Origin: a virus | Taxonomy: Duplodnaviria > Caudoviricetes | DNA: 57,327 nucleotides | IMG/VR virus record: IMGVR_UViG_3300002145_000154 | Location: 1-57,327 of that record | Reading direction: 5' to 3' (one strand) | Made by a program: the position numbers and the translations under genes | Part shown: one piece after another, positions 1-6,830 of the stretch | How positions within the stretch are numbered: position 1 is the first letter of the stretch | Layout of the letters: the number at the start of each line of letters is the position of its first letter | The notes under the pieces: generated by a model | The model's database searches: none | The model's input: only the letters and a program-made list of their open reading frames with translations | What the model was told of the DNA's origin: nothing

Positions 1-40
1 AGGCTCAATGCCGCCACCGCGTTACCTCAGGTCGTTATCT
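1..40 (-). repeat. attC-like element, left half only (runs off the window edge)
   Basis: Minus strand AGATAAC-gacct-gaggtaacgcggt overlaps the TAA of ORF 35..301. It is nearly identical to the element at 2061-2085. Confidence 0.6.
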
Positions 41-301
41 GGAAGAACCATGCTGTTCCATCACAACAGCCATTCGTTCGAGAAGCACAAGTTGCTCTTC
101 TGTCAATTCGTTGCGTTTCATTAACGCCGTATTGGCCAGTTCTGCCAGTTCATTGGCCCGCTTCATAGCCTTCGATCGACCGACCTTCACCCACAGATCG
201 TAGAGAATTATGAACGCCATCAGCCCCAGTGATCCGCCAAGCGTTACTCCCAAACCCCAAACCACTGCTGTCCAAAACATCATGAAACTCCAGATAACCA
301 T
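35..301 (-). CDS. small membrane protein with C-terminal coiled coil
   Basis: Hydrophobic N-terminus (WSFMMFWTAVVWGLGVTLGGSLGLMAFIILY) followed by a charged helix; closely follows the upstream gene. Confidence 0.65.
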   Translation of the reverse strand: MVIWSFMMFWTAVVWGLGVTLGGSLGLMAFIILYDLWVKVGRSKAMKRANELAELANTALMKRNELTEEQLVLLERMAVVMEQHGSSR

Positions 302-304
302 GTA

Positions 305-649
305 TTATTGGGACTCAAACTTCCGCTTCAGTCGCTCGTACTCTTCGGCTTCTTTTGCCTCTTTCCGTTCATTTGCCGCCCGTACTCTCTCGACTCGCAA
401 CCGCTCGCGTTCCGTCACAAAGTTGGCGTCAATCACTCCGGTCGCGAGCAACACTTCATCGCGATAGCACGACGAATCAAAATGATCGTCGTCGTTGATT
501 TCTTCGTCGCCGTCTTCGTAACCTCGATCGATCGACAACTGGCAGTTGCTGCCGTCATCAAAAACCAAGACCATCCGACTTCCGTTTATGCTTTTTGCAA
601 TGCCGCATAGTTTCTTGCCAACAGCGTCTTCAATTTTCGTAAACATCAT
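305..649 (-). CDS. hypothetical phage protein
   Basis: ORF track 305..739. The first 30 codons are the attC-like element, so the start is reassigned to ATG 649 (MMFTKIEDAVGK). Confidence 0.65.
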   Translation of the reverse strand: MMFTKIEDAVGKKLCGIAKSINGSRMVLVFDDGSNCQLSIDRGYEDGDEEINDDDHFDSSCYRDEVLLATGVIDANFVTERERLRVERVRAANERKEAKEAEEYERLKRKFESQ

Positions 650-655
650 AAATCC

Positions 656-744
656 CGATAACAAACCAATGCAAACGAGCGGCCATCGATCGCTTTTGAA
701 GTGGTGAATCAACCGTGGCCGCCGGTTGATTGGTAGCATTGCCG
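656..744 (-). repeat. attC-like site (89 bp)
   Basis: Minus strand CGGCAAT...accaatcaaccggcggcca...tggccgcTcgtttgCattggt...GTTATCG: imperfect inverted repeat with two unpaired extra bases and a GTT-type right end. Confidence 0.65.
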
Positions 745-783
745 GCCTTCACGTTCGGGCTGGCTTACCTTGGGTCGTTATCT
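745..783 (-). repeat. attC-like left half-site
   Basis: AGATAAC-gaccc-aaggtaag overlaps the stop of ORF 778; same motif as at 34-40, 1565-1571 and 2079-2085. Confidence 0.5.
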
Positions 784-1065
784 GGTAAGCCCCATCAGCA
801 CCTTGTCGATGGCAGCTTCGTCCCGTTCGTACATCTTCTCTTCGACGGTCAGCCCATCCTCATGAAAATGAAGACGCAATGCCTTTGCAGTGCGCTGTAC
901 GTGCTTCTGTAACAGTTGTCGGGTACCGCGTCCTACCTCGGCACCCGGGCACTTCAGAATCTCCCTATAAACCAACTCCAGAAGCAGAAGTGACTCATGT
1001 GCAATATCTGCTGCGCAGTTAGCATCAGTTGGGTCTACGTGTTGCAAGGCGTCTTGGGCGTTCAT
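778..1065 (-). CDS. hypothetical phage protein
   Basis: ORF track 778..1170. The first 35 codons coincide with the attC-like site, so the likely start is ATG 1065 (MNAQDAL). Confidence 0.6.
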   Translation of the reverse strand: MNAQDALQHVDPTDANCAADIAHESLLLLELVYREILKCPGAEVGRGTRQLLQKHVQRTAKALRLHFHEDGLTVEEKMYERDEAAIDKVLMGLTR

Positions 1066-1075
1066 CGTGAAATCC

Positions 1076-1165
1076 AGATAACAATGTATTGCACGGGAGT
1101 TGCGGGTCTCGCGTGTTCTGAATGGGGAGCAACTTGCCGCAACCCCGTGAATACGGTCGTTATTC
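1076..1165 (-). repeat. attC-like site (90 bp), best-conserved copy
   Basis: Minus strand GAATAAC-gacc-gtattcacggggttgcgg...ccgcaacTcccgtgCaatac-att-GTTATCT: AAC/GTT ends and paired inner boxes with two extrahelical bases. Confidence 0.75.
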
Positions 1166-1525
1166 GTCAACCACCGTCATCTCGTCGCATGGCCGAACGT
1201 CAACCAAATCGGAACCCCACAGAAACCTTTTCGCGTCGTACTTATCTGACAAAGCACAACCCGTGTAGCCTTTCGGAAACCGATCACCCTTTTCGCTTGT
1301 GACGTACATCAGGACCGGAACCATCCCACGAACGGCAACCTCGTAGATCGCCCACTCGCCGTGGTAATCCTTGTTGCCTGTCACTTCCGTTTTCACCTTG
1401 TCGCCAATGTGAATTGCTCGTCCGTTGCTGTCGTACAGTCCAGTGGCCGATCCATAAGACGGATAACTATTGCATGCACGGGAGCCGCGACCTGCAGCAA
1501 CATTTTTCGTCTTTTTTGTACGCAT
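1160..1525 (-). CDS. YopX-like phage protein
   Basis: TGLYDSNGRAIHIGDKV matches the YopX TGLkDknGkeIyeGDiv motif; likely ATG at 1525. Confidence 0.6.
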   Translation of the reverse strand: MRTKKTKNVAAGRGSRACNSYPSYGSATGLYDSNGRAIHIGDKVKTEVTGNKDYHGEWAIYEVAVRGMVPVLMYVTSEKGDRFPKGYTGCALSDKYDAKRFLWGSDLVDVRPCDEMTVVDE

Positions 1526-1571
1526 GATTTCTACCCTCCACCGGATGCCCAACAACCTTGAATCGTTATTT
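1461..1571 (-). repeat. degenerate or chimeric attC-like site
   Basis: Left end AAATAAC-gattc-aaggtt at the stop of ORF 1566; right end cgcggctcccgtgcatgcaataGTTATCC resembles the right half of the 1076-1165 copy. Confidence 0.5.
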
Positions 1572-1751
1572 GCTCAACGTCATCTCTACCGGTGTCGCGT
1601 GTGGGATTATTGTTAGAGACTGTCCACCATTTTCGAGTTTGGTGAATCGCAATTTGAACTCACAATATGATTCCACCTTCAGTAGGTCAATCAGATTTCG
1701 AACCAAACAATCCACCCTGTCTCGCTCCAAAACGATTTCTTCGCTAATCAT
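1566..1751 (-). CDS. hypothetical protein
   Basis: ATG 1751 preceded by GGAGG; the stop overlaps an attC-like left end. Confidence 0.6.
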   Translation of the reverse strand: MISEEIVLERDRVDCLVRNLIDLLKVESYCEFKLRFTKLENGGQSLTIIPHATPVEMTLSK

Positions 1752-1762
1752 GAGACCTCCGC

Positions 1763-1845
1763 AAATATCCAAGCAATGTACCAGGCAGCCGTCTGGCGTA
1801 AAGACACAGTCAACTCTTCGCCTCCAGTAATTGTAGTCGTTCTTT
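1763..1845 (-). repeat. degenerate attC-like site (83 bp)
   Basis: AAAGAAC-gact-acaattactgg...ccTggtaCattgc-ttg-GATATTT; same two extra bases, right end GTT changed to GAT. Confidence 0.45.
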
Positions 1846-1847
1846 GA

Positions 1848-2060
1848 CTACGCATATTCTGATGGCGAGTCCTTCACATGAAAATTGTCCAGAAATTCAT
1901 CCCTCGATCCTCGCCATCCACAACTTCCCCAGCCTGGCCACTTGGGATCACGTCGTGAAAATGACTCATGTCCGTGGCAGTGGTATTGAATCACACCACC
2001 AGACTTCGACGATCCATAATGATCACCGCCACACTTCGGACATTGGAACTCTTTTTTCAT
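1848..2060 (-). CDS. small zinc-ribbon protein
   Basis: CPKCGG...YHCHG...SCGWRG. Confidence 0.6.
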   Translation of the reverse strand: MKKEFQCPKCGGDHYGSSKSGGVIQYHCHGHESFSRRDPKWPGWGSCGWRGSRDEFLDNFHVKDSPSEYA

Positions 2061-2085
2061 ACCACGTTACCTCAGATCGTTACCT
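2061..2085 (-). repeat. attC-like left half-site
   Basis: Plus strand accacgttacctcagatcgttacc versus accgcgttacctcaggtcgttatc at 16-39 (21/24 identical). Confidence 0.55.
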
Positions 2086-2087
2086 GC

Positions 2088-2396
2088 TCATCTCTCGCAC
2101 GCTGGCCGTGTTCGCCTCATCAACGCCTCTGCCTCATCAACGCCAAACGGTTCGCCATACCCCAGCCTGGCGTCCGCGATCGGACTTCGAGCATCGATCA
2201 CTTTTCGATACACCATACAGTCTACCGTTGCGGCCAAACAATCCGCTGCCTGTACTCGCAAACGTAAACGCATCAGTTCGCGGTGTTCACCACTCGTAAG
2301 TTCACCGTGTTTTCTCGGCGGTGGCGGGCTCACTGGTCGGTTCTCTGGCAAAGACTGCAAATTCTCTGGTATAGGCTGCGGGGCTTTGGCTCCCAT
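2088..2396 (-). CDS. hypothetical phage protein
   Basis: ORF track 2088..2468. The N-terminal 24 codons span the attC-like site, so the likely start is ATG 2396 after GGGAG. Confidence 0.6.
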   Translation of the reverse strand: MGAKAPQPIPENLQSLPENRPVSPPPPRKHGELTSGEHRELMRLRLRVQAADCLAATVDCMVYRKVIDARSPIADARLGYGEPFGVDEAEALMRRTRPACER

Positions 2397-2415
2397 GTCG
2401 CACTCCCACAAAAGC

Positions 2416-2506
2416 AGGTAACAATCGCATGAAGCCGAGGGCTCATTCATGCGTTTTCTGAAATTCAAGTCTTCCTTTTGTGTTGGGTGACCTTAGTGCG
2501 TTCTTT
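2416..2506 (-). repeat. degenerate attC-like site (91 bp)
   Basis: AAAGAAC-gcact-aaggtcacc...ctcggcttcatgcgattGTTACCT; same length class and intergenic position as the other copies. Confidence 0.5.
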
Positions 2507-2508
2507 TG

Positions 2509-2946
2509 CTATTCACCGTTGGAAGTCTCTTTGATATCAGCGGGAGTAATGACTTGAAACCCGTCCTTGAATGTCGCAATTCGATCATCGTCGCCGATCT
2601 GTCCCAGCGTTGTGTTAATGTGTCGCAACAGGCCGTCCATCCAGTCCTTGGTGTTCTGTTCACTGCATGTCGTCACGTAACCTAACAGGCTGTTCACTGC
2701 ACTTACAAGTCGCACGTCTTCCGGTCGCTTCTCTCGACTATTCCATCGCGAAGCTAACTTTTTCCGGTTATGGTCTGGCCCAATCTGGGGCATCACTGGA
2801 CAGTCACAGTTGCTGCACCCAATCAGTGTGGTCGTCAGCGTTCCACCGATCGACTCTTCCGCTTTGGACCCGCAGAACGGGCATGGTAAAAGAACCATGC
2901 GTTCGTACGGAGCCGTCATTGTAGCTGTGTCTTGGGCTTGCGACAT
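2509..2946 (-). CDS. Lar-family restriction alleviation protein with C-terminal extension
   Basis: LLPCPFCGSKA...IGCSNCDC...RWNSR, the typical Lar pattern. Confidence 0.7.
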   Translation of the reverse strand: MSQAQDTATMTAPYERMVLLPCPFCGSKAEESIGGTLTTTLIGCSNCDCPVMPQIGPDHNRKKLASRWNSREKRPEDVRLVSAVNSLLGYVTTCSEQNTKDWMDGLLRHINTTLGQIGDDDRIATFKDGFQVITPADIKETSNGE

Positions 2947-3180
2947 GACGACCTCAGATTACAGAAGTGGATTATTGTTAAGGGAGTGGGTGCCTCTTAA
3001 TCTGTGTTTGTTACCAGCAAATCACAGATTTCAGGTCCATTCGCATGGCACCCAACCCGCAGTAGACTGCAACAATTGATCACTGTATCAACCACGAGAG
3101 AATTCAGATCGTACCTGACACCATGCCAACCGTTTGCATTGCAGTCTGCCCCATAGACCTACCAGGGCTGCCTTTCCAGC

Positions 3181-3456
3181 TTATTTCGGCCAAAGATTAA
3201 GACGCTGGAGAGAGTAAGCTTCCGGTCCCATCAGGTCTGACACAGCTTGCTCCCACAACAAACCATCGATCTTTCCTATCTTGAGACCAGCTATCACTTG
3301 CTCCAGTTCTGCAAAGATCAGTGAGAGTTGCTCTTCTGTAGGATCGATCGTTGCCAACGTCTGAGCCAGAGTTTTCAACGTCTTCCTGACAACTACCTTT
3401 GTAACGATACAACTCGTCGCCTTCTTTTTCTGTGGAGCAGATGGAACACTACTCAT
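3181..3456 (-). CDS. hypothetical protein
   Basis: 91-aa ORF in a coupled minus-strand series. Confidence 0.55.
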   Translation of the reverse strand: MSSVPSAPQKKKATSCIVTKVVVRKTLKTLAQTLATIDPTEEQLSLIFAELEQVIAGLKIGKIDGLLWEQAVSDLMGPEAYSLQRLNLWPK

Positions 3457-3655
3457 CGGTCAGTTCCTCCCAAGCTTCTTGTAAAACAATTATGAGGTGT
3501 CGAAGGTCTTCCATATCTGGTATTGTAATCAGATCAGGAGGATGTCCTTCTTCTTCAAAGTTTTGGAACAGATCCACGCACTTGGTATCTCGACCAACAT
3601 TGACAAAGACATCCAGACCAGCCTTTTCTCGATAATTTTCATTCTTATGAATCAT
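3449..3655 (-). CDS. hypothetical protein
   Basis: GGGAG upstream; 8-nt overlap with the next gene. Confidence 0.55.
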   Translation of the reverse strand: MIHKNENYREKAGLDVFVNVGRDTKCVDLFQNFEEEGHPPDLITIPDMEDLRHLIIVLQEAWEELTDE

Positions 3656-3694
3656 TGCTTACTCCCAGCATCTTGTAGCTTGTCACGTTCATTC

Positions 3695-3892
3695 TCAGTA
3701 TTTCCTGAGTTCTACAAGAGAGGAAGACAGATCCATGCTTGCTCTTTTCAGAGCTGCCGTGTGCTTTCCTCCGACGTACCTGGGATCATTGTCATCTGGA
3801 TCCTCCACAGAAGCTAGATCTTTCACAGCTTCTGCTTTTTTGATGAATCGTCGGGCATTTTCAATCGCTTCCTCAATCTGTGACATCCTCAT
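3695..3892 (-). CDS. hypothetical phage protein
   Basis: Helical 65-aa ORF (AALKRASMDLSSSLVELRK). Confidence 0.55.
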   Translation of the reverse strand: MRMSQIEEAIENARRFIKKAEAVKDLASVEDPDDNDPRYVGGKHTAALKRASMDLSSSLVELRKY

Positions 3893-3907
3893 GATTTCAC
3901 GTCCTTT

Positions 3908-4483
3908 CTAGCAACTACATGAAAAGGAATGAGGACGGACAGGACATAGTAAGCCTGTCACGTTTTCTACATGATCCCAGAACTCTGGTGGAATATCCCC
4001 ATGAGCGTCCAATCCGTTGAAGTGAAGATAATCATCGTCCAGAGTGTAGCCTGTTCGGTAGTATTTCGGGTCCGAGCTTTTTAACTCTCCCGCTGTTGCT
4101 GCTGTGATCAGTGTTTGGTAGTCAGGACAATCAGACCTGTCCACAAAATCCTCTAACCACTCTCTTGATTCTTCCTTTGTGAATCCGAAGCACTTTTGTT
4201 TTTCATCACTGAAGGATGGATGACTCCAGTGGTGTTTCATCCCCCTTACAGACTGAGGGAACAGCACCAGCCAGAATACGTCGCCTTCTTTAATGATGTC
4301 TTCAAGAAAAGGATCAACAATTCCCAAAGGATTGTGAGATGATTCGATCGCCGAACCATTTTCAACAGTGACTTTATCTCCCCTTGCAAGAACCTCTCCA
4401 GCTCTGACCGCAATGATCGCAACGTGAACAGCATCTCGCTCGCCAAGCACTTTTGGTGTTTGACCTAGAGTCGGACTTTCCAT
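3908..4483 (-). CDS. conserved hypothetical phage protein
   Basis: RDAVHVAI...GIVDPFL...FWLVLFP...HHWSHP...FSCSC, a pattern seen in phage hypothetical proteins; AGGAGG RBS. Confidence 0.7.
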   Translation of the reverse strand: MESPTLGQTPKVLGERDAVHVAIIAVRAGEVLARGDKVTVENGSAIESSHNPLGIVDPFLEDIIKEGDVFWLVLFPQSVRGMKHHWSHPSFSDEKQKCFGFTKEESREWLEDFVDRSDCPDYQTLITAATAGELKSSDPKYYRTGYTLDDDYLHFNGLDAHGDIPPEFWDHVENVTGLLCPVRPHSFSCSC

Positions 4484-4493
4484 TTCATCCTCC

Positions 4494-4760
4494 TTATCTC
4501 ACACGAACCAGGTACTGTACCAACACGCTCTGGTACAAAAGACGACCACTACAGACTACAGGCCGAAGTTCAACTCTGAGTATACGGACGTAGACAGGAC
4601 ACACCGACACTGGTCGATAGAAAACCGGAGACTCTCCTGGAAAAGGTTTGATCAGACGACTTGGTTCCTCTCCAGGCATCGGTCCGATCACGTAGTTCTG
4701 AGCCTGGACTTCTGTTGTGAGCAACAGAGTAAAGATCAACAGCAACAAGTGCGATTTCAT
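4494..4760 (-). CDS. small secreted protein
   Basis: Signal peptide MKSHLLLLIFTLLLTTEVQA|Q. Confidence 0.55.
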   Translation of the reverse strand: MKSHLLLLIFTLLLTTEVQAQNYVIGPMPGEEPSRLIKPFPGESPVFYRPVSVCPVYVRILRVELRPVVCSGRLLYQSVLVQYLVRVR

Positions 4761-4805
4761 GTTTGCTTTCTCTGATTAAAGAACACTGAAGACTGCTCTG
4801 AAGAC

Positions 4806-5039
4806 TTAGAGGGTCTCTCCTTCTAACGTGTCTCCAGTCAGTTCTATGCCCAACTTCCATGGCTCCAAGGACTTTTCTGGTTCCATGGTCTCTTGTTGTG
4901 GATTGTTCAAGATTTTGATTACTTCCACAGCACGTTTCAGAGCACGCTTCCATCTCATCTGTTGAGGACGAAGGACTTTTTCAATCGTCTCTAACGATTG
5001 GATTGTTTCAGCAACATCAAGCTCAGTTAGATCAGGCAT
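4806..5039 (-). CDS. hypothetical protein
   Basis: 77-aa ORF in the operon. Confidence 0.55.
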   Translation of the reverse strand: MPDLTELDVAETIQSLETIEKVLRPQQMRWKRALKRAVEVIKILNNPQQETMEPEKSLEPWKLGIELTGDTLEGETL

Positions 5040-5055
5040 TCTTCTTCCCCAGAGA

Positions 5056-5508
5056 TTAGTGACAGAGGTTTCCCCAATTGTTTTCCCACTCTTCTTGTTC
5101 TTCTTGAGAGGTCGGTGGGCGACCCTCCTTGGCTATGAATTCAAACCAAGTGCAAAGTTGGTAGATTGTTTGTTGCGTTTGTGCACGATTTCCTTGTTGA
5201 TGACTCTCTAGTCTCGTGTGAAGTTGTAGGTTATCTTGTCGATCGTCTTGTCGGTTCTCATTGATGTGATCTACAAAACAGTCATCAGGGATTTCTTCTC
5301 TAGACAGAACCAAGTACAGCAAACGATTCTTGTAGACCACAGACCTTCTCGAACCTACAGAGTATCTCCACCTTCCTCTCCACAGTTGAGCTATCTTAGT
5401 GATCCATCGCTTATGGGCGTTATGGAAAATCTGAAGTTCTCCGTCCTCTGAAAAGCGAAGCTCGTCTTTCAAGATTTTGGTTAAGCACCATTGTTCTCCT
5501 GGACTCAC
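5056..5508 (-). CDS. HNH endonuclease
   Basis: VDHINENRQDDRQDNL...H motif; GTGA overlap with the helicase stop. Confidence 0.75.
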   Translation of the reverse strand: MSPGEQWCLTKILKDELRFSEDGELQIFHNAHKRWITKIAQLWRGRWRYSVGSRRSVVYKNRLLYLVLSREEIPDDCFVDHINENRQDDRQDNLQLHTRLESHQQGNRAQTQQTIYQLCTWFEFIAKEGRPPTSQEEQEEWENNWGNLCH

Positions 5509-6830
5509 TCTGCCAACTCCATTATATTCTCGTAGAGCGTCACCATCTTAGAGACGAGTCTCCAATGGGGACGAGCCTGTATCCCTGGGATTTTGCTGGG
5601 ATGGAACAACTCCACAACGTGGATTTGGCGAAGGAATCGCAACAATACATGGAGTTTCGCTGAATCCTTCGCTAATCGTGTGGACAATGCTTTGGCCTGA
5701 CAACCGTCTTCTCCACACTCATAGAGGTAGTCGATGATGTCCATCGTCTGTCCTCGTGCCGTGTCCAGGGCAACTTTCGTACAACGCCGCATCACCTCTT
5801 GGTCGAGAGATTTCCGATTAAGAACAAAGGCTAGACATTTCGCCAACCTGACGTGCTGAGACACAAGACGAGCGGCAAATTCCCTCTCCGCTGTTTCGTC
5901 CTGTTGTGTAGAAGGTCTGGCCCGTAGAAACGCGACAAACTTTCCAAGACGAGTACACTTCCTGAGCGAGGACTCCGTTCCTGTAATGCGGTTCATTTCA
6001 TCGATTGCATTGTGTCTAAGCCAATCGATGTAGCCTCCGGTCATAGCAATGGCTGTTGCCATTGCCGGATCATGTTGTTGAGCTTCGTCTCCGACCGCTT
6101 CGACGATCATGTTTTTGTCAGTGCGTTGAGCCACCTTCCATAGGATCTCATCCTCCAGATCATCATCGATTCCATCCATGATCACACAATCCAGGAACCG
6201 TTGTCCTAACTCAGATGAGTCAAGAGTTCTCATGGATGCTGTACCACAGATGATCCACGTCATACGGATCCCAGTGTAGTCCCGACTTGTTTTGTTACGG
6301 TAATGCGTTCGAGAAGAACCATCGTAAACATCACGAGCTTCTGAGAGAATCTGACCAAGATTTGGTGACTGGAGTAGCGTGTCACCATCTTTTGTAACGA
6401 GCGTCTTTCCTCCCAGCTTTGCAATCAGAGAGTTGTCTTCAGTTCCATCACCAAACCCTGAGTGGAACCCACGAATCGTAGATTTCGCGAGAACGTACTC
6501 CTCGTTGATGGAAACAGCTTCGCAGAGAGTTGATTTTCCACAACTTGCTGGTCCTACAATCTTAACCCACAACTGGTCTCCGACAGACGGAACCGAAGCA
6601 ATGGAAGCAAGCATCACGGACAGAGCACAATCCAGACCATCGGTCCATTTCATGGCTGACTTCCAGGCTGTGACCAGATCCTCGTAATTATCACAAGGAA
6701 TCTTTTCGAGCTCAGGAGCTTCTCCTGCCTGCTTGACTCTTTTTGCCTTCCATTCCTCAGGGACTGGAGCGATCATCTTGAGGAAGAGTTCGGTGCGCAC
6801 CGCGAGATTTTGCAGCTTATCTACAGTCAC
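5505..6830 (-). CDS. AAA+ (MCM/SF3-like) replicative helicase
   Basis: Walker A VGPASCGKST, LVTKDGD Walker B region, LSEARDVYDG, LGQRF arginine finger; C-terminal wHTH-like region; near the primase. Confidence 0.7.
   Translation of the reverse strand: MTVDKLQNLAVRTELFLKMIAPVPEEWKAKRVKQAGEAPELEKIPCDNYEDLVTAWKSAMKWTDGLDCALSVMLASIASVPSVGDQLWVKIVGPASCGKSTLCEAVSINEEYVLAKSTIRGFHSGFGDGTEDNSLIAKLGGKTLVTKDGDTLLQSPNLGQILSEARDVYDGSSRTHYRNKTSRDYTGIRMTWIICGTASMRTLDSSELGQRFLDCVIMDGIDDDLEDEILWKVAQRTDKNMIVEAVGDEAQQHDPAMATAIAMTGGYIDWLRHNAIDEMNRITGTESSLRKCTRLGKFVAFLRARPSTQQDETAEREFAARLVSQHVRLAKCLAFVLNRKSLDQEVMRRCTKVALDTARGQTMDIIDYLYECGEDGCQAKALSTRLAKDSAKLHVLLRFLRQIHVVELFHPSKIPGIQARPHWRLVSKMVTLYENIMELAE

Follow-up and report, generated by a model that had tools for sequence, protein, structure and literature searches.

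The window analysed here is the whole of a viral contig of 57,327 bp (57 kb; about 80% complete), whose proteins include a tape measure protein, a DNA polymerase, a helicase, an exonuclease and a thymidylate synthase. Every gene in 1-2946 lies on the minus strand, and the genes tile the whole region in an array that continues past the left contig end. The genes and the elements at their junctions are listed below, R1 being a covariance model described in the next section.

1-42, minus: 5' half (R' box, spacer and L' arm) of a second-subfamily attC site that the contig end truncates
35-283, minus: g1, 82 aa; no family match
284-306, minus: 3' box remnant alone, TTGTTATCTGG type, between the g2 stop and the g1 start
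305-649, minus: g2, 114 aa; weak match to phrog_11750 (E 0.006)
651-748, minus: attC site 2 (R1 39.2 bits, E 1e-9; nhmmer E 1.5e-9; fold z -2.3 to -3.2)
749-785, minus: orphan 5' arm (CCAGATAACGACC...AAGGTAAG; families D1, D2)
778-1065, minus: g3, 95 aa
1071-1169, minus: attC site 1, intact (R1 91.6 bits on the minus strand, partly by construction because R1 was seeded from this site, vs 32.8 bits on the plus strand)
1160-1525, minus: g4, 121 aa; first ~21 codons inside an attC remnant
1460-1572, minus: broken attC, 5' arm 1546-1572 and 3' arm 1460-1493 (families D1, D3)
1566-1751, minus: g5, 61 aa
1758-1849, minus: possible strongly decayed attC (R1 10.4 bits, E 1.3; z ~0)
1848-2060, minus: g6, 70 aa; zinc-ribbon (weak Zn-ribbon matches, E 0.01)
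2061-2087, minus: attC 5' arm remnant (AGGTAACGATCTGAGGTAACGTGG; families D1, D2)
2088-2396, minus: g7, 102 aa; 75.6% identical homologue in metagenome locus L064
2416-2511, minus: decayed attC; apical hairpin alone folds
2509-2946, minus: g8, 145 aa, Lar-like restriction alleviation; first gene of the array

The Lar assignment of g8 holds (PF14354, E 9.6e-8, that is about 1e-7 and above the cut-off; phrog_599 also matches). The name YopX, used in the first-pass annotation and here checked for g4, is not confirmed, as g4 has no Pfam match at E<=0.1 and no PHROG match at E<=0.01. When 12 window proteins were compared with all loci by tblastn, g7 alone matched, and its homologue in L064 adjoins a full attC. 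A search for relatives with the Lar and g2 proteins found none; the 441-aa protein led to one distant contig (L046, 50% amino acid identity), in which the motif is not enriched.

The first-pass annotation had described a related element at most of these junctions. The element is real, but intact copies are fewer than claimed: the covariance model recognises two of the approximately nine junction elements (1071-1169 and 651-748) as intact, the remainder being decayed or half sites, with one more site (1-42) truncated by the contig end. Site 1, proposed as 1076-1165, folds end to end (DNA z -3.0 and -3.4; RNA z -4.7) and has both the AAC and GTT triplets. Its bottom strand is the minus strand, with bulged C (plus-strand G1091) and T (plus-strand A1098); its 5' box contains the g4 stop, and g3 starts 9 nt past its 3' box. 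Site 2, proposed as 656-744, is recovered by R1 at 651-748 (39.2 bits, E 1e-9); it shares a common structure with site 1 at low sequence identity, the hairpin being preserved through compensatory changes with both bulges as in site 1. Its 5' triplet is AAT, not AAC.

The other proposed copies fare less well. For the 111-bp chimera, nhmmer still recovers the 3' arm (1460-1545, E 1e-4; a match that includes the start and the first 21 codons of the gene at 1160-1525), but the centre has been replaced by the ribosome-binding site and start of g4 and there is no end-to-end fold. Similarly, the 3' 60% of the copy at 2416-2506 is found by iterated nhmmer (2416-2475, E 2e-4), but end-to-end folding is not (z ~-1), and 1763-1845 is not significant (R1 10.4 bits, E 1.3; fold z ~0). 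The three "left halves" are real, conserved boxes of 26-30 nt (D1, D2) belonging to a second attC subfamily, whose 5' arm they form. The one at 1-42 is a complete site truncated by the contig end: read from 42 to 1, the minus strand matches the 5' halves of complete sites in L085, L150, L145 and L249, which continue for another ~55-60 nt to ...TTGTT. The g1 TAA stop lies within 1-42 and that of g3 within the orphan arm 749-785, where the plus-strand GTT at 777-779 is the predicted crossover box; the second box of 2061-2087 is the ribosome-binding site of g6, and 286-306 is 90% identical to 1070-1090 (family D12). More generally, g1, g3, g4 and g5 each end on a TAA supplied by a 5' ATAAC box, the TGA of g7 directly precedes a GGTAAC box, and the starts at 1065, 649 and 283 follow a 3' box by 9-12 nt (that at 2396 by ~25 nt).

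The window has four exact GTTATCTGG boxes, all within 1-1100, and 22 matches with at most one mismatch (9.96 expected; none of 100 shuffles reaches 22), while the longer box GRTAACWAWNNNWTGCANNNGAG occurs three times (657, 1077, 1462; none expected from 100 shuffles). As had been noted, the rest of the window has no further copy; the best remaining R1 matches there have E >=0.6.

Structure of the attC family

R1 was built from 129 distinct copies, starting from the window's own copy at 1071-1169. We treated as unrelated, and kept out of the alignment, the 43-nt pattern matches in L056, L090, L121 and L127 and the long-gap matches in two actinobacterial genomes (L176, L180). The site is an imperfect palindrome of ~90 nt. 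Inward from the 5' AAC box there follow a short unpaired spacer, a variable 5-bp stem, a 6-bp stem and a 7-bp stem, with an extrahelical C between the first two stems and an extrahelical T between the last two; a variable loop and a 3' GTT box complete the palindrome. The two extra bases, C and T, reported for the minus-strand 3' arm are indeed present (plus-strand G1091 and A1098 in site 1); across the family the bulged C (column 83) and T (column 76) occur on the 3' arm in 129/129 copies, although the core was fixed in advance by the search pattern. The pairing itself is well supported over the 129 copies: paired cells make up 87.7% (80.2% in shuffles; 0/500 as high), double-sided changes number 334 (141 in shuffles), with 17-43 per pair in the 5-bp stem, and the covariation score is 0.233 (0.110 shuffled, 0/500 as high; 0.051-0.109 when slid). 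The three AAC/GTT triplet pairs are kept in 119, 124 and 127 of 129 copies, and 113 of 129 have a G.U wobble at columns 12/92 that exists on the coding strand alone. Rfam, searched over 1-3600, gave no attC match (three unrelated families, E 0.87-2.9, below gathering scores).

Some details depart from the sites of class 1 integrons, in which the spacers between R and L boxes are ~6 and 5 nt; here they are shorter, at 4 and 3 nt. The R boxes (AGATAAC/GTTATCT) fit RYYYAAC/GTTRRRY only in part, and the proximal extrahelical base is C where the canonical site has G. In other features the family resembles attC-aadA7 and VCR as described in Nivina et al. 2016 (PMC5027507): the bottom strand folds and is cleaved at 5'-AAC-3', extrahelical bases lie opposite the triplet, the spacer is unpaired and the terminal structure varies. 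That paper numbers the extrahelical bases of attC-aadA7 as 16 and 23; counting from the outermost base of the 7-nt GTT box, an origin that we assumed, we place the bulges here at 16 and 23 as well. The same source defines the bottom strand by bulges opposite the AAC triplet, which makes the coding (minus) strand the recombinogenic bottom strand in this case.

Planctomycete integrons, viral contigs and gene polarity

The hairpin core of 1071-1169 was found in 119 metagenome and 27 genome stretches, against a rough chance expectation of ~0.1. The first-pass annotation had predicted planctomycete attC matches, and 23 of the 27 genome stretches belong to Planctomycetota. R1 matches form same-strand arrays with a spacing of 400-1500 bp in Pirellulaceae genomes; four planctomycete genomes (G001-G004) have 22, 15, 52 and 12 of them separating single ORFs, and one complete chromosome has more than 30 within 33 kb. 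An integron integrase (IntI, TIGR02249; cut-off 265 bits) adjoins the arrays in canonical geometry (G003: 429 bits, G002: 387 bits), and coordinates give the same geometry in G043, G106, G077, G059, G041, G066 and G112. Among the sampled Pirellulaceae genomes, 82/101 have R1 matches and 46/101 an IntI above cut-off. Covariation, bulge geometry and arrays beside integron integrases thus bear out the attC architecture proposed from the window alone. Sedentary chromosomal integrons with a taxon-specific attC family are described for Planctomycetota in Ghaly et al. 2021 (PMC8352920) and Cury et al. 2016 (PMC4889954).

The core also occurs in 14 further IMG/VR contigs, in arrays of up to seven sites, some of which retain 6-7 intact sites; phage hallmark genes lie beside such arrays (L104: portal, G015: major head protein and IntI). 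The arrangement seen in the window recurs in fourteen more viral contigs and in many metagenome contigs. Of two other motifs searched in IMG/VR, the short-junction motif gave two matches, both AT-rich and due to chance, and a looser left-arm motif gave 39 single matches, about the rough chance estimate, of which L008 and L034 later proved real.

The window sites share AAC/GTT boxes, bulges and array spacing with the Planctomycetota integrons (family membership by R1 match); the genes do not share their orientation. In a canonical cassette the top strand carries the gene and the cassette's attC follows it, whereas the window genes lie on the same strand as the R1 (bottom-strand) matches, with each attC upstream of its gene. 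The window rows are "ambiguous" in the orientation count because mechanically called ORFs start inside the sites, and the polarity of the window was taken from gene coordinates and the Lar match. Viral contigs have 10 bottom-strand against 3 canonical arrangements; bacterial genomes have 4 against 72 (76 decidable; Fisher p = 5e-8). The window sites cluster with the subfamilies found in bottom-strand arrays. The cargo differs as well: bacterial cassettes carry DUF6714, TPR, ankyrin and Imm33-like proteins, whereas bottom-strand cassettes carry DNA methyltransferases and Lar. On our reading, the phage-type cargo consists of counter-defence genes (here Lar; in relatives orphan DNA methyltransferases and a Mom-like gene). 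No cassette was shared between viral and bacterial-genome loci among the 55 similar cassette pairs found.

Gene-content breakpoints had been expected at G|TT (bottom strand AA|C), and three comparisons fit. A block common to L085 and L150 (100% identity, one N) runs from the AACG of one attC to the AACG of the next with unlike flanks; the shared unit is a gene plus its site, not the hairpin alone. The homology between g7 of the window and L064 stops at the AACG box, CAGGTAACG, after which L064 continues into a full attC. In contigs of four runs, the match to the window starts at the GTT box (776 or 780), and the sequence preceding it is different. Identity blocks that coincide exactly with cassettes indicate that the units move, and the neighbours of shared cassettes differ in 13/61 evaluable comparisons. 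The contigs of these four runs do not cover 1200-6000, a hole that by itself proves nothing.

A cassette array in a tailed phage

The statement that no integrase is in view is correct for the whole 57,327-bp contig, which has no TIGR02249 match and no tyrosine recombinase match at all; the window therefore shows no complete integron, which would have intI, attI and a promoter beside the array. The visible array is therefore a CALIN, with two significant sites 322 bp apart and no intI in the contig. We suggest, with a probability of roughly 0.7, that the junction elements are attC sites of the Pirellulaceae/Planctomycetota chromosomal-integron family, present as a CALIN in a tailed phage. The integron-site interpretation is supported (attC, planctomycete matches, no integrase), with the corrections that the window has two intact sites and one cut by the contig end, the rest being decayed, that YopX is not confirmed and that the genes are on the bottom strand.

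We infer the action of IntI on this phage. An integron integrase, supplied by the host or encoded by the phage itself, perhaps in the ~20% of its genome that the contig lacks (an IntI is encoded on G015, a related viral contig), would bind the folded bottom strand and cut between the A and C of AAC. The unit of attC and downstream small gene could then be excised, inserted or swapped between phages. Most sites in the present phage would since have decayed, leaving the genes fixed in place; the window array may no longer recombine, because only two of the approximately nine elements are intact and one of these has AAT at the cleavage triplet.

The decay can also be read another way, which we regard as unlikely: attC-flanked genes were once acquired, the sites are no longer recombined, and their conservation now serves expression, with a hairpin in the mRNA joining the upstream stop (5' box) to the downstream ribosome-binding site and start (3' box) for translational coupling, processing or stabilisation. 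Most junctions are halves or decayed copies, remnant 1460-1572 has turned into coding sequence, site 2 is without the AAC triplet, the stops of g1, g3, g4, g5 and g7 and the four starts sit at the boxes as described above, site 1 folds as RNA (z -4.7), and the wobble at columns 12/92 (113/129) exists on the coding strand alone. However, the same wobble and bulges are kept in bacterial arrays whose genes are on the other strand, and they are therefore properties of the DNA site and not of an mRNA. Further, identical AACG-bounded blocks in different contigs speak for recent mobility in this class, and other viral contigs have kept 6-7 intact sites.

It is less probable still, and in our view improbable, that the left ~1.15 kb comes from another genome and was joined in assembly at the repeated attC 1071-1169. 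Contigs from four runs of one study match 1-805, 776-888, 859-973 and 944-1105 at 99-100%, their sequences part within the attC (loose ends at 1105 and 1150), and one contig of 2097 nt extends 1292 nt past the left end of the window. Logan contigs, however, routinely break at repeats; attC remnants reach 2511, gene strand and polarity are the same either side of 1170, and a misjoin would still require an attC in the phage part, such that phage-type attC cassettes stand either way. Mobile hairpins of MITE or REP type, or a structured RNA merely resembling attC, would account for terminal inverted repeats (CCAGATAAC/GTTATCTGG) and a loop conserved within subfamilies (Rfam has no match either way), but we rejected them as very improbable since the arrays are strictly same-strand, split single ORFs and adjoin integron integrases, the bulge geometry fits attC, and what is shared is gene plus site and not the hairpin alone.

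Repeated intergenic stem-loops that flank small accessory genes and mark shuffling boundaries are also a feature of the hyperplastic regions of T4-type phages, in which PeSL promoter/stem-loop cassettes undergo homologous recombination between repeats; we know of no link between these cassettes and an integrase or a host site family. Returning to the attC reading, phage CALINs (attC clusters lacking an integrase) have already been published in one survey (Qi et al. 2023, PMC9892861), in which IntI1 recombined five of six tested phage attCs. The window resembles them in having at least two attC between small phage genes with no nearby intI, and their cargo includes five DNA methyltransferases, which phage-type cassettes here also carry. 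The phages of the survey infect Tetrasphaera, Polaribacter, Pseudoalteromonas, Vibrio and others, and none is associated with planctomycetes; for two of them the survey describes a cassette orientation of the bacterial type, whereas here genes are on the attC bottom strand. Unlike those CALINs, the sites here form a sequence-conserved family of one host clade. It is the reversed polarity that is new, and the present case further adds attC subfamilies of its own, anti-restriction cargo and cassette-exact boundaries.

Since sequence links the phage attC sites to the attC family of a single host clade, the match serves as a host prediction for an uncultivated marine phage, which probably infects Pirellulaceae or a related planctomycete. 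Two recent preprints (bioRxiv 10.1101/2024.07.02.601686 and 10.1101/2024.07.02.601719) report that integron cassettes hold many anti-phage defence systems; the reversed gene direction suggests that these phages maintain a separate stock of exchangeable anti-restriction cassettes. More tentatively, and with somewhat less than even confidence, we propose that Planctomycetota phages hold their own mirror-image cassette lineage, sharing one recombination system with the host in their arms race but with separate cassette pools, in which the attC stands upstream of a small bottom-strand counter-defence gene and the arrays are co-directional with the phage operon, running into a phage-borne intI in G015 and possibly L092. 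If so, the recombinogenic strand would be the non-template strand and, should the genes run with the replication fork, also the lagging-strand template, a placement under which folding and cassette turnover would be greatest in the course of infection. Bottom-strand genes captured by a host integron would be antisense to the cassette promoter (Pc) and so silent. Should the polarity rule hold, it would bear on cassette birth, on the control of recombination by strand exposure and on whether phages shuffle counter-defence genes via host integrases.

Sites at the left end of the phage contig

The window spans an entire IMG/VR virus record; it is linear (57,327 bp, about 80% complete according to CheckV), and its genes for a tape measure protein, DNA polymerase, helicase, exonuclease and thymidylate synthase identify it as a tailed phage. 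Eight small genes tile the minus strand of positions 1-2946. The first gene of the array encodes a restriction alleviation protein of the Lar family (PF14354, E 1e-7); the name YopX, which the first-pass annotation gave to the gene at 1160-1525, finds no support in Pfam or PHROG. The covariance model R1, seeded by the copy at 1071-1169, and iterated nhmmer searches locate the following.

Sites and half-sites in the window
1071-1169, minus strand: attC site (R1, 91.6 bits)
651-748, minus strand: attC site (R1, 39.2 bits, E 1e-9), with AAT as its 5' triplet
1460-1545: half-site match (iterated nhmmer, E ~1e-4)
2416-2475: half-site match (iterated nhmmer, E ~1e-4)

Over the 57 kb R1 scored nothing else apart from a candidate at 1758-1849 that falls short of significance (E 1.3). 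Each junction begins, in coding-strand orientation, with a CCAGATAACGA-type box that contains the TAA stop of the upstream gene, and many close with TTGTTATCTGGA, the next start codon lying within about 10 nt; these boxes are enriched at, and restricted to, the left end of the window. It had been proposed that the best copies pair internally except for the same two bases. Two junctions do form a long imperfect hairpin over their full length, the two bulges being the same in both, but the other three long junctions have no such fold. The proposed left halves at the short junctions are 5' arms belonging to a second attC subfamily (AACGnCTGAGGTAACGSGG...). Positions 1-42 align with the opening half of complete sites from other loci and are therefore a third site, truncated where the contig ends.

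The short junctions (16-41, 759-784 and 2061-2086) carry tandem boxes on the plus strand, CGTTACCT and CGTTAYCT, 13 nt apart, the second of which supplies a GAGGT ribosome-binding site on the coding strand. The broken attC at 1460-1572 encodes the start codon and first ~21 codons of the gene at 1160-1525, and looks like a recombination site turned coding sequence. Upstream of the Lar gene, TAATCTGAGGTCGTCATG (2947-2975) contains the CTGAGGT motif again, as in the attC 5' arm; no attC site is detectable in that interval, which may be the decayed edge of the array. Short contigs from four runs of one study, all labelled marine metagenome, match positions 1-1150 at 99-100% identity and include two alleles of 859-973. 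One of them extends 1292 nt past the left end of the window and apparently contains another copy of the hairpin (joint 1127->1).

A planctomycete attC family in integron context

A pattern built from the stems of the copy at 1076-1165 occurs in 119 metagenome stretches and in 27 from GTDB genomes; of these 27, 23 carry the label Planctomycetota (Pirellulaceae, Planctomycetaceae, Rhodopirellula, Rubripirellula, Mariniblastus, Aporhodopirellula rubra and one complete Pirellulaceae chromosome). A taxon-specific attC model for Planctomycetes has already been published (PMC8352920). From 144 hits, 131 of them distinct, we aligned 129 distinct copies with 20-nt flanks, leaving out two actinobacterial long-gap hits and, earlier, 43-nt hits and hits lacking full flanks. 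Conservation extends as far as AACG at one end and TTGTT at the opposite end, a 5-bp stem shows covariation, and two bulges interrupt the conserved stems. Nivina et al. state that extrahelical bases opposite the AAC triplet mark the attC bottom strand (PMC5027507); by this rule the orientation of the alignment, and thus the minus strand of the window, is the bottom strand. Numbered from the outer edge of the GTT box, the bulges are bases 16 and 23; if our assumed count origin holds, these are the extrahelical positions that the paper gives for attC-aadA7 (PMC5027507).

In four planctomycete genomes R1 detects arrays whose sites share one strand and are spaced 400-1500 bp apart. In two of these genomes, G003 and G002, an integron integrase (IntI; TIGR02249, cut-off 265 bits) adjoins the array, scoring 429 and 387 bits respectively; both integrases lie on the same strand as the attC bottom strands and point away from the array, which is the canonical layout, and coordinates place at least seven further genomes in the same arrangement. 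Among 101 sampled Pirellulaceae genomes, 82 have R1 matches and 46 an IntI above the cut-off. The complete Pirellulaceae chromosome (G001:C1:4812000-4845000, loci L236-L237) packs more than 30 attC sites into ~33 kb; its one intI-like match is broken and lies elsewhere (133.6 bits, one TAG, at 2.57 Mb). No working integrase lies near this large array.

The 57-kb window contig yielded no tyrosine recombinase. Fourteen other viral contigs hold this site family, and one of them, G015, encodes an IntI (384.6 bits) flanked by a Mom-like gene on one side and head genes on the other, all on a single strand; the three rated 100% complete have none. G015 is a 21-kb IMG/VR contig rated 19% complete. Its minus strand carries an attC of the window's family, then the Mom-like DNA modification gene, then IntI (L253:8681-10380, equal to G015:C1:19681-21380) and, beyond these on the same strand, a major head protein and a minor tail protein; with its array continuing past the end of the contig, it is a candidate for an integron carried by a phage. 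In a 7.1-kb metagenome contig (L092:940-5954), seven attC sites with genes on the bottom strand run into a same-strand IntI (TIGR02249, 283 bits against the cut-off of 265), and these sites are identical to those of two loci, L110 and L159, that adjoin helicase and primase. A 5-kb contig (L166) in a Microbacteriaceae-labelled MAG has six sites of the window's subfamily beside a phage-type helicase (phrog_16) and is probably a mis-binned phage fragment.

Polarity of genes relative to the sites

The unexpected part of the finding is reversed polarity. Strand calls are based on mechanical ORFs, with Pfam support for a minority of the cassettes only.

Gene strand relative to R1, by source
Bacterial genome loci: opposite R1 (canonical) 72; on R1 strand 4; ambiguous 37
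Viral contig loci: opposite R1 (canonical) 3; on R1 strand 10; ambiguous 14
Metagenome contig loci: opposite R1 (canonical) 66; on R1 strand 44; ambiguous 85

Viral and bacterial-genome counts differ (Fisher p = 5e-8), most of the ambiguous viral cases have a fully open R1 strand, and the window, with its genes on the R1 strand, is of the viral type. Metagenome and genome loci separate cleanly: 23 contain R1-strand cassettes only, 55 canonical cassettes only and 9 a mixture. In a poorly resolved tree of the sites, most R1-strand arrays, and the window with them, group in subfamilies separate from those of bacteria; the 'opposite' label requires 19 changes on it, compared with 36.6 in shuffles, and 0 of 500 shuffles gave so low a count. 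The two classes also differ in cargo: matches on the R1 strand (69 ORFs) are to Dam (3), Lar (2) and, in one ORF each, other N6/N4 methyltransferases, GIY-YIG and DUF551; those in canonical cargo (91 ORFs) are to DUF6714, TPR, ankyrin, Imm33-like and similar families.

Movement of units and a proposed mechanism

In two loci, L085 and L150, a common block differs by no more than a single N; it starts at the AACG of one site, includes this site and the gene after it, and stops at the next site's AACG, between unlike flanks. The homologue of the window gene at 2088-2396 in another locus (L064) is 75.6% identical, and similarity stops at the AACG box. In contigs of the four runs from one study the match to the window starts at 776 or 780, the GTT box, with unlike sequence before it. 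Neighbours differ in 13 of 61 evaluable comparisons across 55 similar cassette pairs.

Clusters of attC sites without an integrase (CALINs) have already been described in phages (PMC9892861). Full-text searches of the literature listed no paper on planctomycete phages with attC arrays and none on reversed cassette polarity in phages, which does not prove that there are none.

The analysis shows the family to which the sites belong, their integron context and geometry, the boundaries of the units and their polarity; the mechanism is a proposal. An integron integrase would fold and cut the bottom strand of the phage DNA during infection and swap units of attC plus gene, and the reversed polarity would expose the bottom strand on the non-template strand. 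Since most of its sites have decayed, the array in the window may be largely frozen.
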